The translations under genes were made by a program, and so were the position numbers. DNA of 64,000 bases from IMG/VR virus record IMGVR_UViG_3300033494_000001; one strand, written 5' to 3'. Below the pieces are notes generated by a model, which worked only from the letters and a program-made list of their open reading frames with translations, did no database searches and was not told the origin of the DNA. Source of the stretch: a virus (taxonomy: Duplodnaviria > Heunggongvirae > Uroviricota > Caudoviricetes). This document shows positions 47,939-57,876 of the stretch, piece by piece (the stretch's first letter is position 1; each line of letters opens with the position of its first letter).

Positions 47939-48069
47939 TCCGGAGACCTGGACTCGAACCAGGACGCTTCTACAAGCTGCAGTTTCTAGTTGAAGTAACT
48001 AATATATAGCTCTATTGAGAAAGAATAACAGTAACGGACTGCTGTGTCTACCAATTTCACCATCTCCGG
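47939..48069 (-). ncRNA. tRNA-Leu-like gene (type II) with a ~50-nt insertion in the anticodon loop
   Basis: Perfect acceptor CCGGAGA/TCTCCGG, Leu-like D-arm GGTGAAATTGGTAGACAC, anticodon stem GCAGT...ACTGC enclosing ~56 nt, variable hairpin GCTTGTAGAAGC, T-arm CCTGGTTCGAGTCCAGG; the insertion contains a copy of the 21-nt AGAAGTAAC motif. Confidence 0.5.
47991..48011 (+). repeat. 21-nt motif copy 9 (TGAAGTAAC-N6-ATAGCT), inside the tRNA-Leu-like insertion
   Basis: Matches consensus AGAAGTAAC-N6-7-ATAGCC. Confidence 0.5.
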
Positions 48070-48115
48070 AATTAAAAAGGAAATTTTATGAGTAATCTTT
48101 TTTATAGCAAAATGA

Positions 48116-48137
48116 AGAAGTAACTTCATAAATAGCC
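48116..48137 (+). repeat. 21-nt motif copy 10 (AGAAGTAAC-N7-ATAGCC)
   Basis: Exact consensus; ~45 nt 5' (minus-strand sense) of the tRNA-Leu-like element and 6 nt 3' of the tRNA at 48144-48217. Confidence 0.55.
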
Positions 48138-48143
48138 TTTTTG

Positions 48144-48217
48144 TCGGCACAGAAGGAATCGAACCTCCGACCATATCTCCCTGAAGATATTCGCTTTCCC
48201 TACTAGCGCGTGTGCCG
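48144..48217 (-). tRNA. type I tRNA with an 8-nt anticodon loop UUCAGGGA (contains UCA) - candidate TGA-decoding tRNA
   Basis: Perfect acceptor CGGCACA/TGTGCCG, D-arm CGCT...AGCG, anticodon arm ATATC-TTCAGGGA-GATAT (18 nt instead of 17), T-arm GGAGGTTCGATTCCTTC, A73; assignment uncertain. Confidence 0.4.
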
Positions 48218-48294
48218 TGTTCCTCCCCCATTCAATATCCTTCTAAGGGGGAGGGTTTTTCCTAGCTTTACTTTTAAACGAATTTAAGCTGACA

Positions 48295-48328
48295 ATGTCT
48301 GAGCATCTACCAACTGATGTACGGGGCC
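48295..48328 (-). ncRNA. tRNA 5'-half-like element (GGCCCCG acceptor strand + D-arm)
   Basis: rc reads GGCCCCGTACATCAGTTGGTAGATGCTC; its acceptor strand is the exact complement of the 3' acceptor strand at 48472-48478, but that element lies on the 5' side (permuted order). Confidence 0.3.
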
Positions 48329-48469
48329 TTAATAAATTCTTCCGCATTAATCTGCGTATTGCACTTGGATTAAATTATGCAGCTTTATTAATATAGCTTT
48401 GGTACCTCTGAATTAATAACTCTTTTAACCTGTCACGCGTTCCGCAATAAGGAATTGTAAACAGTTGTG

Positions 48470-48503
48470 GAATTGAGGCCCCGACGGGGTTCGAACCCGC
48501 GGC
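48470..48503 (-). ncRNA. tRNA 3'-half-like element (T-arm + CGGGGCC acceptor strand)
   Basis: rc reads GCGGGTTCGAACCCCGTCGGGGCCT; partner 5' strand found ~150 nt downstream rather than upstream. Confidence 0.3.
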
Positions 48504-48796
48504 TTTCAGATTTAGTGCTTCGTTTAGTATTTTCTAGGGCTTGAGACTCAATGATTACACTTCACTCACAACACTGAGGAATAGTCTAAATTACAGGGAT
48601 GTAATTAAACTGAATGTAACACTATTGAGTGTATTTTTATTTATCGTTTTCGATTAAGGACTGTAAACCGAGAAGAAAGGATTTAATTTCACCAGGCGTT
48701 AAAACAATATATTCTTTATTTAAACGTATAGTGACTACAAGTTTGTCTTTAACAACTTCTAAGACAGAACTTCCACTTCTTACTTGGGTTACCATG

Positions 48797-55059: not shown

Positions 55060-55929
55060 TTATTTAAGGAGATAATCTTCTTTAATAAGAAGGTCTTTGA
55101 TGAATTGTAAGTTCTTTTGGTAATCGGGAATTAAGTGATAACCATTACCTATTGCTAAATGATATAGATTGGCTAAAACTTTTCTTGCTTGATACATTAC
55201 GAACACAGTAAATGCAAGTTCGTCTTTATGATTTAGAATATACTTGACAACACGTGTGTTTGGTAAAAAGTTTTCATTCTTGATAATTTTATCTAAGAAC
55301 AAAAGATTCTTAACAAAAGCATAGTTTAAGTAATTCTCAACTTTTGGGTCAATGGTAGGATCAGATAATTCAGCAAAGTAAAGGAAAACGTGATCATTGG
55401 TGATGTTATTTTCTTTAAAAGTGCGCTCAATAATTCGTTCATGTGAACCGGTGATTTTGATATCATCCATCATGATTAAAAACTTTCTTTCTAAGAATGC
55501 TTTATCAATTTGGAATCCATCTTTGGAGATTAAGGCAAGGCGTTGTTCAGCGCTTAATTCTCCATAGTCTTCTTTATATGTATTGGTACGATGAATTTTA
55601 CTTAATTCTACGACTGGATAACCTATATCAACAAGATGTTGGTTAAGAAATTGTACGAAGTAATTACTCAACGACCAAGTAGCGGTTGGAATGAAACAGT
55701 AGGGACTTGACATCACAACAAACTCACGATGATTCTGCTGCAAAATGTTTAAAAATACTTTACTATTAATGAACTTTCTGGCAAGTTCGTAGCCATATTT
55801 CCTGGCAATGTCTTTATCGCCAAACTTAAACTTGGAGTATTCTACAGGTAGAAATCCATACTTTAGTTGATCAAATTCAGTACTGTCAGTTTTCTTAATG
55901 ATTTTATGCAGAGCAAATGTATATCTCAT
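55060..55929 (-). CDS. phosphoribosyltransferase (PRTase)-like protein of the Ter-associated biosynthetic set
   Basis: FLIMMDDIKITGSHE resembles the PRPP-binding hhhhDDhhtTGgT loop; position immediately upstream of HAD and TerD as in described Ter gene neighbourhoods. Confidence 0.45.
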   Translation of the reverse strand: MRYTFALHKIIKKTDSTEFDQLKYGFLPVEYSKFKFGDKDIARKYGYELARKFINSKVFLNILQQNHREFVVMSSPYCFIPTATWSLSNYFVQFLNQHLVDIGYPVVELSKIHRTNTYKEDYGELSAEQRLALISKDGFQIDKAFLERKFLIMMDDIKITGSHERIIERTFKENNITNDHVFLYFAELSDPTIDPKVENYLNYAFVKNLLFLDKIIKNENFLPNTRVVKYILNHKDELAFTVFVMYQARKVLANLYHLAIGNGYHLIPDYQKNLQFIKDLLIKEDYLLK

Positions 55930-56618
55930 TTGTAAACCTCCTTCACATAAGCAACAACATCCATAATTGTTTTATCATTAGAGTTGATGATCATAGATTG
56001 CATCCCAATTTGAGTAGGACCAAAACCATCAGCTATTGGATTATCTCCAACATGTAGTATCTCTTTAGTTACAAATCGAGAGCGAGTTGTAATGTATCCA
56101 AAAAATGCGGGGTTTGGTTTTGCTAATTCAATTTCATCAGAGAAGTATTCATCTACAAACATGAAATAAACCTTTTGTTTACGAAGTACTTCTCGAATGG
56201 TTTCACCTAGAATAAAACCTGTATTGGAACCAATAGTTAATACTGGAACTATATCAGATAATATATCAAGAGCCCGAAAAGTATTATCATCGTATAGACT
56301 TGGAGGATTTTCCAAGAATAAAGTTTGAAATTCATCAGAGATACTACTAAGAGTAGAATAATCAATCGGAGTTAATTCTTCATAACCCATCTCTAATAAT
56401 AGAAAGGCAATCATTTGAAGGCTGTCAAAATGTAGTCCTTGTATTTCAACCAGACGCGTACATTGAATGTCTATCTTTCTCATCATTTTTGCTATTTCAT
56501 ATTCAGTTAACTTTTTAGGGTTATACTTTTGAAATAGCATGGCCGCTTTTGCTTTTTTGAAATCAGGATTTGATTTCAGCAACGTAAGCCACACGTCAAA
56601 GGAAAGGTGGTTAATCAT
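55926..56618 (-). CDS. HAD-like hydrolase (degenerate motif I)
   Basis: C-terminal VGDNPIADGFGPTQIGM fits HAD motif IV; N-terminal LSFDVWLTL only loosely fits DxDxT. Confidence 0.4.
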   Translation of the reverse strand: MINHLSFDVWLTLLKSNPDFKKAKAAMLFQKYNPKKLTEYEIAKMMRKIDIQCTRLVEIQGLHFDSLQMIAFLLLEMGYEELTPIDYSTLSSISDEFQTLFLENPPSLYDDNTFRALDILSDIVPVLTIGSNTGFILGETIREVLRKQKVYFMFVDEYFSDEIELAKPNPAFFGYITTRSRFVTKEILHVGDNPIADGFGPTQIGMQSMIINSNDKTIMDVVAYVKEVYK

Positions 56619-56684
56619 GTCTTTTTTAGGATTTAAAAAGGAGTGCCATTACAGCACCCCTTTTGATTTAATTGGTAAAGAGTC

Positions 56685-57260
56685 CTACAAGAGGGTTTTG
56701 ATTGTTTCGGCAATCTGGTTAATGTCACCATTGGCACCATTACCCATTGCTTCAAATTTCCACTCGCCGTTGTGACGGTAGAGTTGACCCATAATCATAC
56801 CGGTTTTTCCGGAATAGTCTTCAGACAGATCAAATTTGGCAAGTTCAGCAGCATTCGCAGGATTGAATACCCTCACAAAGGCATTACGAACCTGACCAAA
56901 ATGCTGTCTCCTGGCTTCGGCTTCATAAATGTTTACAATAACAACAATGCGATGTACGCCTGCGGGGACGGCAGTTAAATCAACATTGATTACTTCATCG
57001 TCGCCATCACCGGCACCGGTAAGATTATCACCCTGATGGGTAACACCAAATTCTTTCAAATGACGGAAGTAAATAACACCCTTATTGCCTTCGTAAATTG
57101 ACTTGTCTTCCTTTAAAAGGATAACAGTACTGTCAAGGTCAACAGCGGGTCCATCGGTTTTTACATCCCATCCACAGCCAATGGCTACTTGGGTAAGTCC
57201 TGGGTTTTCTTTGGTAATGTTTACTCTTTCTCCTTTTTCAAGGTTCAATGGATTGTTCAT
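56685..57260 (-). CDS. terD: TerD-family protein
   Basis: GCGWDVKTDG...DLDSTVILL...HQGDNLTGAGDGDDEVINVDL...NIYEAEARRQHFGQVRNAFVRVFN...LYRHNGEWKFEAMGNG - near-canonical TerD sequence. Confidence 0.85.
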   Translation of the reverse strand: MNNPLNLEKGERVNITKENPGLTQVAIGCGWDVKTDGPAVDLDSTVILLKEDKSIYEGNKGVIYFRHLKEFGVTHQGDNLTGAGDGDDEVINVDLTAVPAGVHRIVVIVNIYEAEARRQHFGQVRNAFVRVFNPANAAELAKFDLSEDYSGKTGMIMGQLYRHNGEWKFEAMGNGANGDINQIAETIKTLL

Positions 57261-57366
57261 TTTGTTCTGTTGTTAATGTTTACTTTTTCTCCTTTTTCAA
57301 GAGCCAATGGATTTTCCATTTGTTTTGTTTTTAATTGTTAATTGATTTTATTGGGTAAGCGTGATT

Positions 57367-57714
57367 CTAAATTAAATTTTCCAATGGATAAGCATTTCGG
57401 ATTGACTCCATATCAATTTCATACATGAAATCATCTGTGTTATCATTACATTGCATAACATGTGTTACATCAATATCCTGCGGCAATCGAAAATTGTGTA
57501 CAGGTGAGCCTATCATTCGAACTTTTTCAATTATTGCCTCAACAGCTGCTTCAACATGAAGTTTAGCAAATGCTATGGCGACTTGTCCAGTATCAGGAGG
57601 AATATTCTCTCCATAAGGATCAAATTCTAAACTTCCTCGACACTGAGTAATAAATTCTGATATTGTAGGTACTGTTTCCATTGTTTCTAAGATTAAATTA
57701 AAAACCTCCGCCAA
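57367..57714 (-). CDS. hypothetical protein (true start probably ATG at 57681)
   Basis: Track start at 57714 is a TTG; first ATG gives METVPTISEF... Confidence 0.4.
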   Translation of the reverse strand: MAEVFNLILETMETVPTISEFITQCRGSLEFDPYGENIPPDTGQVAIAFAKLHVEAAVEAIIEKVRMIGSPVHNFRLPQDIDVTHVMQCNDNTDDFMYEIDMESIRNAYPLENLI

Positions 57715-57742
57715 CTATTATTGTCAAGCGGCGGAGGTTTAA
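57697..57742 (-). terminator. rho-independent-terminator-like hairpin (AAACCTCCGCC...GGCGGAGGTTT + T-run on minus strand)
   Basis: 11-bp GC-rich stem followed by TTTTTAATTT on the minus strand, between the 703-aa gene and gene 57367..57714. Confidence 0.4.
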
Positions 57743-57855
57743 TTGAAGGGGGTTTAACACCCCGCGGTTTGGCGAAGGGATCGCCTTCTGGTACAAAGTA
57801 ATAAGGAATTGATTCAGTGGCTTTTTCAGCGACACCCCTTCTATTTTATGTACAT

Positions 57856-57876
57856 AGAAGTAACTCAATCATAGCC
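57856..57876 (+). repeat. 21-nt motif copy 8
   Basis: AGAAGTAAC-TCAATC-ATAGCC, just downstream (minus sense) of the 703-aa gene stop. Confidence 0.5.

Follow-up and report, generated by a model that had tools for sequence, protein, structure and literature searches.

The 64,000-nucleotide stretch of the tailed-phage record IMGVR_UViG_3300033494_000001 analyzed here (the window, to which all coordinates refer unless another locus is named) carries repeated copies of a 21-base motif, AGAAGTAAC-N6-7-ATAGCC, which in minus-strand sense reads GGCTAT-N6-7-GTTACTTC, downstream of a gene for a 703-aa protein (57903–60014, minus strand). Five exact matches are present in the window against 0.00 expected from 100 shuffles, and the remaining five copies were found at one mismatch. 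In plus-strand numbering the ten copies span 47992–48011, 48117–48137, 52183–52202, 52283–52302, 52366–52385, 52456–52476, 52958–52977, 53050–53070, 53172–53191, and 57857–57876. The original prediction had listed ten copies in a single orientation, and all ten were recovered on the minus (coding) strand, its coordinates lying one base earlier with one more A included. The minus strand is also the sense strand of every open reading frame (ORF) of ≥ 150 aa, every tRNA, and the transfer-messenger RNA (tmRNA) of the window.

A motif search over the window confined the copies to 47.9–57.9 kb, and a structure-aware scan of the window outside that interval returned background only, with the GGCTA box missing and no convincing extra copy. 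Within the 64 kb the motif occurs in 0 of 17 ordinary tRNA genes, is not in the tmRNA gene, and stands at no protein-coding operon start. An exact-motif scan of IMG/VR yielded 110 loci; more than one copy was seen in only one among the 80 listed, which is the chance level.

Nine of the motif copies open small units of 59–122 nt, arranged head to tail at 15–30 nt intervals, the first of which (unit 0) begins 27 nt past the stop codon of the 703-aa gene. The tenth copy lies, as had been claimed from the sequence, within the insertion of a tRNA-Leu-like gene. Arrays of the same architecture adjoin homologues of the 703-aa protein, on the same strand, in at least 12 loci or genomes. These comprise relatives at 62–70% protein identity (loci L122, L123, L127, L129, and L130), relatives at ∼50% identity (L139, L140, and L141), and isolated phages whose proteins are 22–26% identical (Weasels2, WXIN, XacN1, and RcXuper).

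The handle and the RNAs that carry it

A second conserved box, (A)AUUUCC, lies 40–110 nt 3' of each motif in the minus-strand reading. The variable “spacer” of the motif, together with the following GT, forms the 5' arm of a 9-bp helix whose 3' arm immediately precedes this box, and the first GG of the motif pairs with the CC of the box as a 2-bp clamp, giving each unit the layout 5'-GG / CUA / 9-bp helix / UACUUC(U) / cargo / helix / A(A)UUU / CC-3'. The helix and the GG/CC clamp are paired and free to vary in sequence; constant in sequence are CUA, which faces AAUUU, and UACUUCU. Spacers of seven bases contain one bulged base at a fixed position.

The 3' arms were located as the most complementary segment within 140 nt downstream, with a box-like TTTC or TTCC required after it. 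The best complement of the spacer directly precedes the 3' box in 49 of 51 units from the window and six related loci. Mean pairing energy was −8.1 kcal/mol for cognate arms versus −1.2 for non-cognate ones, and the unit's own 3' arm was the best partner in 9/9 window units.

We quantified covariation in an alignment (A2) of 47 handle-only constructs, counting the clamp and the 9-bp helix as the structure and using 500 shuffles. Paired cells reached 94.8%, compared with 38–50% when the partners were slid, the former percentage being inflated by the selection of 3' arms as the best-pairing segments before the box. The box serves as an independent anchor for these arms, and no gaps were needed between arm and box. 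Double-sided changes numbered 123 against 31.8 in shuffles, and the observed score was reached by 0 of 500 shuffles. Eight of the nine helix pairs covary, as does the outermost clamp pair: TGCTAT starts go with ...TTTCA ends and AGCTAT starts with ...TTTCT ends. The ∼40 G-U pairs are consistent with minus-sense RNA only. Minimum free energy (MFE) folds contain the 9-bp stem in eight of nine window units, five of these with the GG/CC clamp, and RNAalifold recovers both clamp and stem from six unit 1 orthologues.

Because the spacer pairs, with covariation, to the distal segment of its unit, the motif is part of a folded RNA. From the sequence we conclude that the 21 bases are probably one strand of a base-paired handle, not a promoter, and that the handle is carried by nine small RNAs plus one circularly permuted copy. 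The association of the motif with a set of small tRNA-like and hairpin RNAs, and its dissimilarity to the host promoter, had been noticed in the original prediction and are borne out. Its distances to downstream RNAs are roughly correct, but what they measure is RNA interior, not promoter-to-start spacing.

Unit 0 (57805–57876; minus strand, as are all features of the array; 72 nt) reads GGCUAU-GAUUGAGU-UACUUC, cargo, ACUGAAUCA-AUUCC, and its arms covary among orthologues in L122, L123, L129, and L130. Unit 1 (53085–53191, 107 nt) resembles the bacterial Y RNA YrlA, with the handle around a circularly permuted tRNA-like domain in the order anticodon-like stem 3' strand, T arm, short linker, D arm, anticodon-like stem 5' strand. 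Unit 2 (53001–53070, 70 nt) has a 7-nt spacer with one bulge and a cargo consisting of a GCCC/GGGC hairpin followed by GGGUUUAAGCU.

The handle of unit 3 (52856–52977, 122 nt) surrounds a complete tRNA-shaped RNA (52877–52951) that ARAGORN detects and that scores 37.4 bits with the Rfam tRNA model. In the predicted fold a GAAA tetraloop on a 6-bp stem takes the place of its anticodon loop; in orthologues the corresponding stems measure 7 bp and carry GUGA or 5-nt loops, and the acceptor stems covary. Between units 3 and 4 lies ∼380 nt of non-coding sequence (52480–52855, minus strand) that has no Rfam match and is missing or far shorter in L122 and L127.

Unit 4 (52408–52476, 69 nt) starts with UGCUAU and ends with AAUUUCA, so that its first clamp pair is U-A, and its cargo comprises two hairpins, one of them GCC-GAAA-GGC. 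Unit 5 (52323–52385, 63 nt) starts with GGCUAC and has a short AU-rich cargo, and unit 6 (52218–52302, 85 nt) carries a CUGGUUUCGACCGG hairpin and a T-loop-like GGUUCAAAUCC. The cargo of unit 7 (52134–52202, 69 nt) is a CGAGCC/GGCUCG hairpin, and the unit ends 43 nt before an ATG at 52091. Several cargos are just 18–30 nt long, with little structure. Some units of L139 (6200–6350) and L140 (6100–6250) show an apparent ∼100-nt insertion between GGCUAUGUGAG and ...UCUUACUUCU, within the 5' arm region.

Unit 8 (48079–48137, 59 nt, with a bulged stem) starts 5 nt past a tRNA-shaped RNA (48143–48217) that has an 8-nt anticodon loop, is reported by ARAGORN as “tRNA-???”, and scores 37.2 bits with the Rfam tRNA model. 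Because only these 5 nt separate the two, a dedicated promoter would not fit upstream of unit 8. Scans for sigma-70 promoter-like and terminator-like sequences over 47.4–58 kb remained at background level. Immediately before the tRNA-like gene stands a conserved G/C-rich hairpin (CCCUCCCCC...GGGGGAGG; 48225–48265, minus strand), and a comparable hairpin and tRNA-like pair is found around 15400 in L130. Small self-cleaving ribozymes were rejected as candidates for the units, with no Rfam match and no known core sequence.

The tRNA-Leu-like RNA (47939–48069, 131 nt) appears to hold a closed copy of the handle in place of its anticodon loop, with the motif at 47992–48011. The insert runs in the order 3' arm ACUGUUAU, box UCUUUC, loop, AGCUAU, 5' arm, UACUUC, and the handle halves thus stand in reversed order, as expected of a capped hairpin. 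The tRNA-Leu-like RNAs of L129 and L130 share this arrangement with altered arms, pairing at 7–8 of 8–9 positions with a U-U mismatch at the same place, and a different tRNA-like RNA in L139 (6640–6790) provides a second example of the permuted handle. We take a handle closed into a hairpin as the apparent nature of the insert, which is supporting rather than decisive. An intron-like role restoring the tRNA-Leu anticodon loop was rejected, as removal leaves no common anticodon-loop sequence in the three orthologues.

Permuted and split tRNA genes of red algae and archaea and the tRNA-like domain of tmRNA resemble these RNAs in their permuted element order and in tRNA shapes without a decoding anticodon. 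Unlike in the permuted and split genes, however, no full tRNA can be rebuilt here, there is no bulge-helix-bulge, and the permutation follows the YrlA layout. Anticodon-less tRNA shapes recur in this lineage: the array region of L129 (12400–12760) also contains one tRNA-like gene interrupted by a very long insertion and a second in which a UUCG-capped stem replaces the anticodon loop.

A weak copy of the motif had also been proposed at ∼25028. We did not count it: it amounts to GGGCACATTACTTCT with a possible 5-bp mini-hairpin. The surrounding element (25010–25045, minus strand; GGGCACAUUACUUCUAACUAAUGUUUAAAUUGCCC) could form that 5-bp hairpin with ACUUCU in the loop and a clamp using the first bases of tRNA-Gln, and may be a degenerate mini-handle or a chance occurrence.

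Y-RNA likeness and the adjoining protein family

Unit 1 matches the full Rfam YrlA model (RF02553) at 35.5 bits (E = 4.2e-5, permissive scan), well under the gathering threshold of 69, at which Rfam finds nothing in the window arrays. For calibration, the YrlA of mycobacteriophage Bxz1, which adjoins an annotated Ro gene, scores 32.5 bits, and the 69-bit threshold therefore excludes known phage members too; a unit of Rhodobacter phage RcXuper reaches 40.7 bits. In the six-orthologue RNAalifold consensus, unit 1 has a covarying 5-bp anticodon-like stem as well as T and D arms, with 11 covarying pairs overall. The tRNA-like domain in YrlA order, closed by the anticodon-like stem, is present in unit 1 and five orthologues, and the acceptor-like hairpin is of full length in L129 and L130 and shrunk to a 4-nt linker in the window. 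The other eight window units have no permuted tRNA-like domain and are in this respect YrlB-like.

Y RNAs are recognized by 5' and 3' ends that pair in a long stem bearing the Ro-binding site; here the pairing of the ends is provided by the clamp and the 9-bp helix. A YUAY sequence, conserved in YrlA RNAs (Chen et al. 2014, PMC4201824), follows the stem as UUAC at the invariant UACUUC in 47/47 aligned units, and Bxz1 has GGUUACC. Bxz1 carries three tandem units of the form GGCCGA-N6-7-UCGGUUA(C/U)C, such that its GGCCGA-N6-7-UCGGUUACC parallels GGCUAU-N6-7-GUUACUUC in the window. At the position of the window's GGCUAU, the homologous arrays have GCCGCAUG in RcXuper, which is close to GNCGAAUG, CAGGCUC in WXIN, and GGAUUAAG in Weasels2.

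Among known systems, the closest are the YrlA/YrlB Y RNAs of the Salmonella rsr-yrlBA locus, Mycobacterium smegmatis, and phages Bxz1 and ET08 (PMC4201824), which are likewise 60–130 nt long with paired ends, and Yrl1/2 of Thermus phage phiLo (PMC12135203). YrlA/YrlB-type RNAs and the window units both have an outer clamp, an internal loop, a second helix, and the conserved YUAY; one window member also shows the permuted YrlA order of T arm, acceptor-like hairpin, and D arm. Both occur as tandem paralogues with a common stem module and differing loop modules, and the window units, like Y RNAs, have at most a few hundred bases away, in the same orientation, a gene for a protein with a predicted Ro60-like ring fold. 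The window differs in having GGCUAU for GNCGAA, an outer clamp of just 2 bp, 9–10 units versus 2–3 elsewhere (Bxz1 in our analysis; Salmonella and phiLo per PMC4201824 and PMC12135203), and capped, circularly permuted handle copies within tRNA-shaped RNAs.

By predicted structure, the first domain of the 703-aa protein is helical and Ro60/TROVE-like, and a TerD-like beta-sandwich comes after it. Its AlphaFold model was built from a 32-sequence alignment, with a predicted local distance difference test score (pLDDT) of 83. A Foldseek search of the PDB with this model found only the C-terminal TerD-like domain, and the assignment of the N-terminal region as a putative Ro60-like ring is a fold-level one drawn from a single model. 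The protein has no Pfam match. Its sole match to a named family is to NCBIfam NF041916 (E = 4.8e-70; residues 318–677 against profile positions 386–758 of 842), at 237 bits, far under the 600-bit equivalog cut-off. NF041916 is the “MXAN_6230/SCO0854 family RING domain-containing protein”, and the N-terminus of the profile, presumably with the RING domain, is unmatched in the 703-aa protein; a literature search on this family found nothing. In public data the 703-aa family comprises 565 proteins at E ≤ 1e-5.

In canonical Ro60 the TROVE domain, a ring of HEAT-like helical repeats, is fused to a vWA domain. Unlike canonical Ro60, the window protein has no detectable TROVE signature and carries a TerD-like sandwich instead of vWA, and no C-terminal vWA domain with a MIDAS (metal ion-dependent adhesion site) motif lies within the polypeptide. 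A separate 297-aa protein encoded after the array (50830–51723, minus strand) has a MIDAS-type DVTGS motif, D65-V-T-G-S69, which is invariant in alignment A5. It gives weak tblastn matches to the vWA region of the Bxz1 Ro protein that recur across orthologues, and hhalign against a Ro alignment returned 66% probability (E = 5.6e-5) over 25 columns only. Tentatively, the 297-aa protein may be a separate vWA partner.

A Ter cluster encoding TerD, hydrolase-like, PRTase_3, vWA-TerF-like, and TerC proteins (53407–57260, minus strand) stands between units 0 and 1. Because L122 joins unit 0 directly to the rest of the array, without a Ter cluster, the cluster was either inserted into the array or lost from it. 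Ter (tellurite-resistance) systems, which act in stress and conflict and comprise TerD, TerC, TerF-vWA, and PRTases (PMC7824862, PMC7159879), share with this locus the TerD-like C-terminus of the 703-aa protein and the nearby cluster; no small-RNA component has been described for them in that literature, however, and L122 has the array without the Ter genes. TerD domains have been proposed as sensors of nucleotide derivatives (PMC7159879).

Phages of unrelated hosts keep the architecture with UACUUCUA or a variant of it, and the common factor among them is the neighboring protein, not a polymerase. In Rhodococcus phage Weasels2 there are four units with UUACUUC, including a YrlA-like one; the five units of Mycobacterium phage WXIN take the form CAGGCUC...GCUUUCAU...UUUCCCUG; Xanthomonas phage XacN1 has three with UCCUUCUA; and RcXuper has four with GCCGCAUG and AUACUUCUA, among them the unit that matches YrlA. 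In MFE folds, units from Weasels2, WXIN, and XacN1 have a clamp, then an internal loop with ∼5 nt per side, then an inner helix, and Rfam gave no match for these three arrays even at E ≤ 0.1. The homologue of Salicola phage SCTP-2 (L138) was left out of the array counts. The neighborhoods are rich in tRNA, tmRNA, SmpB, Band_7, and RtcB genes. Megablast of the region against GenBank phages returned no match, and searches for related loci with the neighboring 122-aa, 312-aa, and 167-aa proteins returned distant relatives only or none.

A Ro60-like interpretation and its alternatives

Ro60/Y-RNA particles are conserved from bacteria to humans, and their roles in bacteria and viruses are poorly understood. 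We consider it likely that the array and the 703-aa protein constitute a phage version of the Ro60/Y-RNA system that has diverged and whose set of Y RNAs is unusually large. The 703-aa protein, whose gene lies immediately upstream on this strand, would dock on the handle; the constant length of the helix that joins the two conserved loops suggests a protein gauging how far apart these loops are. The units would most likely be cut from a long transcript that begins at the 703-aa gene or upstream of it, an origin also presumed for the Y RNAs in the Salmonella rsr-yrlBA-rtcBA operon. As in Ro60/Y-RNA particles (PMC4201824; PMC12135203), the cargos would be exchangeable modules working as adaptors or mimics, and the system may serve RNA quality control or repair, or counter-defense around tRNAs.

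YrlA-type Y RNAs are encoded no more than ∼4 kb from a Ro60 (TROVE) gene, in its orientation. In the window no TROVE gene is recognizable by sequence, and the gene for the protein with the predicted Ro60-like fold stops 27 nt before unit 0 in the same orientation. Several observations weigh against the Ro60-like interpretation. Pfam TROVE (PF05731) is found in 0 of 32 members of the 703-aa family even at E ≤ 10, a profile search of PDB sequences with the family was empty, and hhalign of the family against a 16-sequence Ro alignment gave 0.2% probability. The literal Y-RNA motif GNCGAAN0-1G, proposed to contact Ro60 (Rsr) near the 5' end (Chen et al. 2014, PMC4201824), is not present in the window, which has GGCUAU(G/A), matching G-N-C and one A. 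To these are added the sub-threshold YrlA score of unit 1, the inflated paired percentage, and a homologue, MT835874 (L133), that has no array within ∼4 kb. The capped hairpin of the three tRNA-Leu-like RNAs, drawn from manual pairing of their sequences, does not emerge from MFE folding. The window covers 64 kb of a ∼169-kb genome, and a canonical Ro could lie elsewhere in phage or host.

A purely RNA-processing function, which the original prediction had offered as one option, is unlikely as the main role. A nuclease (RNase III, E, P-like, or a phage enzyme) would here free the cargos, with the handle discarded, much like an intron in the tRNA-like genes. The head-to-tail packing at 15–30 nt without recognizable sigma-70-type promoters or terminators between units fits such a cassette, and the complete tRNA shape of unit 3 has ends that RNase P and RNase Z could trim. 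A 9-bp helix is, however, short for RNase III, and its fixed length between two conserved loops resembles a protein-docking ruler. Several cargos offer only 18–30 nt of little structure as products, and the tRNA-Leu-like RNAs of the three orthologues, once stripped of the handle, retain no conserved 7-nt anticodon loop. The YrlA-like cargo has no acceptor end of its own, and its 5-bp anticodon stem runs on into the handle; in YrlA, the anticodon-like stem is retained in the mature RNA (PMC4201824). Processing nonetheless comes closer than the other option offered, a promoter, and is compatible with a Ro60-like particle as an additional role, so that this part of the claim may hold in a secondary sense.

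It is quite improbable that the units are genuine Y RNAs serving a canonical Ro60 elsewhere in phage or host, the 703-aa protein being an unrelated Ter component. The family's lack of a TROVE sequence signal, its TerD-like C-terminus, the adjacent Ter cluster, and the inspection of 64 kb of the genome are all compatible with this explanation. Adjacency of array and protein on the same strand in at least 12 loci or genomes speaks against it, the more so as some of these have no nearby Ter cluster (L122, Weasels2, WXIN, XacN1, and RcXuper). Canonical Ro is also absent from 295 kb of retrieved sequence and from every Xanthomonas or Rhodobacter phage record.

The phage-specific promoter favored in the original prediction, under which an RNA polymerase, either of the phage or a modified one of the host, would be recruited by each motif to transcribe its own small RNA, found no support and is very improbable. 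The motif does stand at the 5' edge of every unit, in one orientation and with an AT-rich, TATA-like middle, and transcripts could start inside or just after it, one sequence serving as both promoter and RNA. Yet the variable middle base-pairs with compensatory changes to the far end of the unit, which promoter recognition does not require, and the first-base variants TGCTAT and AGCTAT are compensated in the 3' box (..TTTCA and ..TTTCT). The placement of unit 8 only 5 nt past a tRNA-like gene, and of motifs in the middle of tRNA-like genes, is likewise at odds with a promoter, as is the absence of the motif from the 17 ordinary tRNA genes and all protein-coding operons in the 64 kb. No RNA polymerase or sigma factor was found among the scanned window ORFs, and phages infecting actinobacterial and proteobacterial hosts show the architecture again, always next to this protein family.

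It is barely credible that the repeat acts at the DNA level, as recombination or cassette sites, as replication iterons, or as a miniature mobile element. Tandem same-orientation copies, inverted-repeat arms around variable inserts, unit number and order that vary among relatives, and a Ter cluster that only this lineage has within its array would fit such a role, but the arms differ between units yet stay complementary, the ∼40 G-T pairs would turn into A-C mismatches if the opposite strand were read, the conserved boxes do not complement each other, the cargos are sense-orientation tRNA-like RNAs with RNA-type covariation, and no recombinase adjoins the arrays. Integron attC-like sites were rejected on the same non-complementarity of the conserved boxes.

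Returning to the diverged Ro60/Y-RNA system, we advance a broader version more tentatively, with doubt slightly the heavier: that large phages of at least four bacterial phyla may share an unrecognized Ro60-like ribonucleoprotein composed of a sequence-invisible Ro-like ring joined to a nucleotide-sensing TerD domain and of modular Y RNAs in an expandable array with as many as ten members. The cargo, a tRNA mimic or a hairpin, would differ from one Y RNA to the next on a common handle, which would also have been grafted onto tRNA bodies in place of the anticodon. One protein could thus be tethered to many RNA or enzyme targets, for example in tRNA protection or repair or in decoying host anticodon nucleases, and its activity might be gated by a Ter-type small-molecule signal.

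Ro60/Y-RNA modules are already known in phages, and the known cases were mostly found through the TROVE-domain gene first. Relative to the literature we searched, the sequence-invisible partner with TerD for vWA, the altered handle sequence, the array size, and the capped handles in tRNA shapes appear new. If the interpretation is correct, a whole branch of the Ro60/Y-RNA system has been missed, with a protein family of hundreds of members that is unannotated and has no Ro60 signature. One handle with ∼10 cargos, together with the versions in which it replaces an anticodon loop, would make the Y-RNA adaptor model directly testable, and the handle (GGCUAU, 8–9 nt, UACUUCU, cargo, complementary arm, AUUUCC) could serve as an annotation signature for phage genomes. 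The ties to TerD and the Ter cluster and to tRNA, tmRNA, SmpB, and RtcB genes hint at conflicts over tRNA integrity.

Genomic surroundings

Downstream of the array, genes for a PurA/PurZ-like adenylosuccinate synthetase (49600–50682, minus strand) and then a DUF7873 protein (48797–49585, minus strand) form a pair that is kept after the array in relatives. The synthetase is PurZ-type by PHROG and scores 45 bits with the NCBIfam PurZ model, whose cut-off is 300 bits; Bxz1 also has a PurA-like gene. A Band_7/SPFH gene (61142–61921, minus strand) lies 1–2 kb upstream of the 703-aa gene and occupies the same position in L115, L122, L129, and L139.

The phage tmRNA (46453–46788, minus strand) encodes an unusual tag, GETKVITMVARRSSMRLAA. 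In L139 and L140 an SmpB gene lies just upstream of the 703-aa homologue, and in RcXuper a two-piece tmRNA adjoins the array. Two extra tRNAs missed by ARAGORN were detected with Rfam at 40516–40587 and 36096–36180 (both minus strand; 48.7 and 43.2 bits, respectively).

With regard to the host, the lack of Shine-Dalgarno sequences suggests a Bacteroidota-like bacterium. L130, a 166-kb phage-like contig of a close relative (GCA_053580305.1, JBMDUZ010000001.1), was deposited in a bin labelled Candidatus Saccharimonadaceae, a placement that could be a binning artefact or a host hint. Further from the array, a group I intron (7661–7902, minus strand; Rfam RF00028, 110 bits) stands beside a GIY-YIG endonuclease ORF (7977–8489, minus strand), and the two probably represent a homing-endonuclease intron in a replication-region gene.

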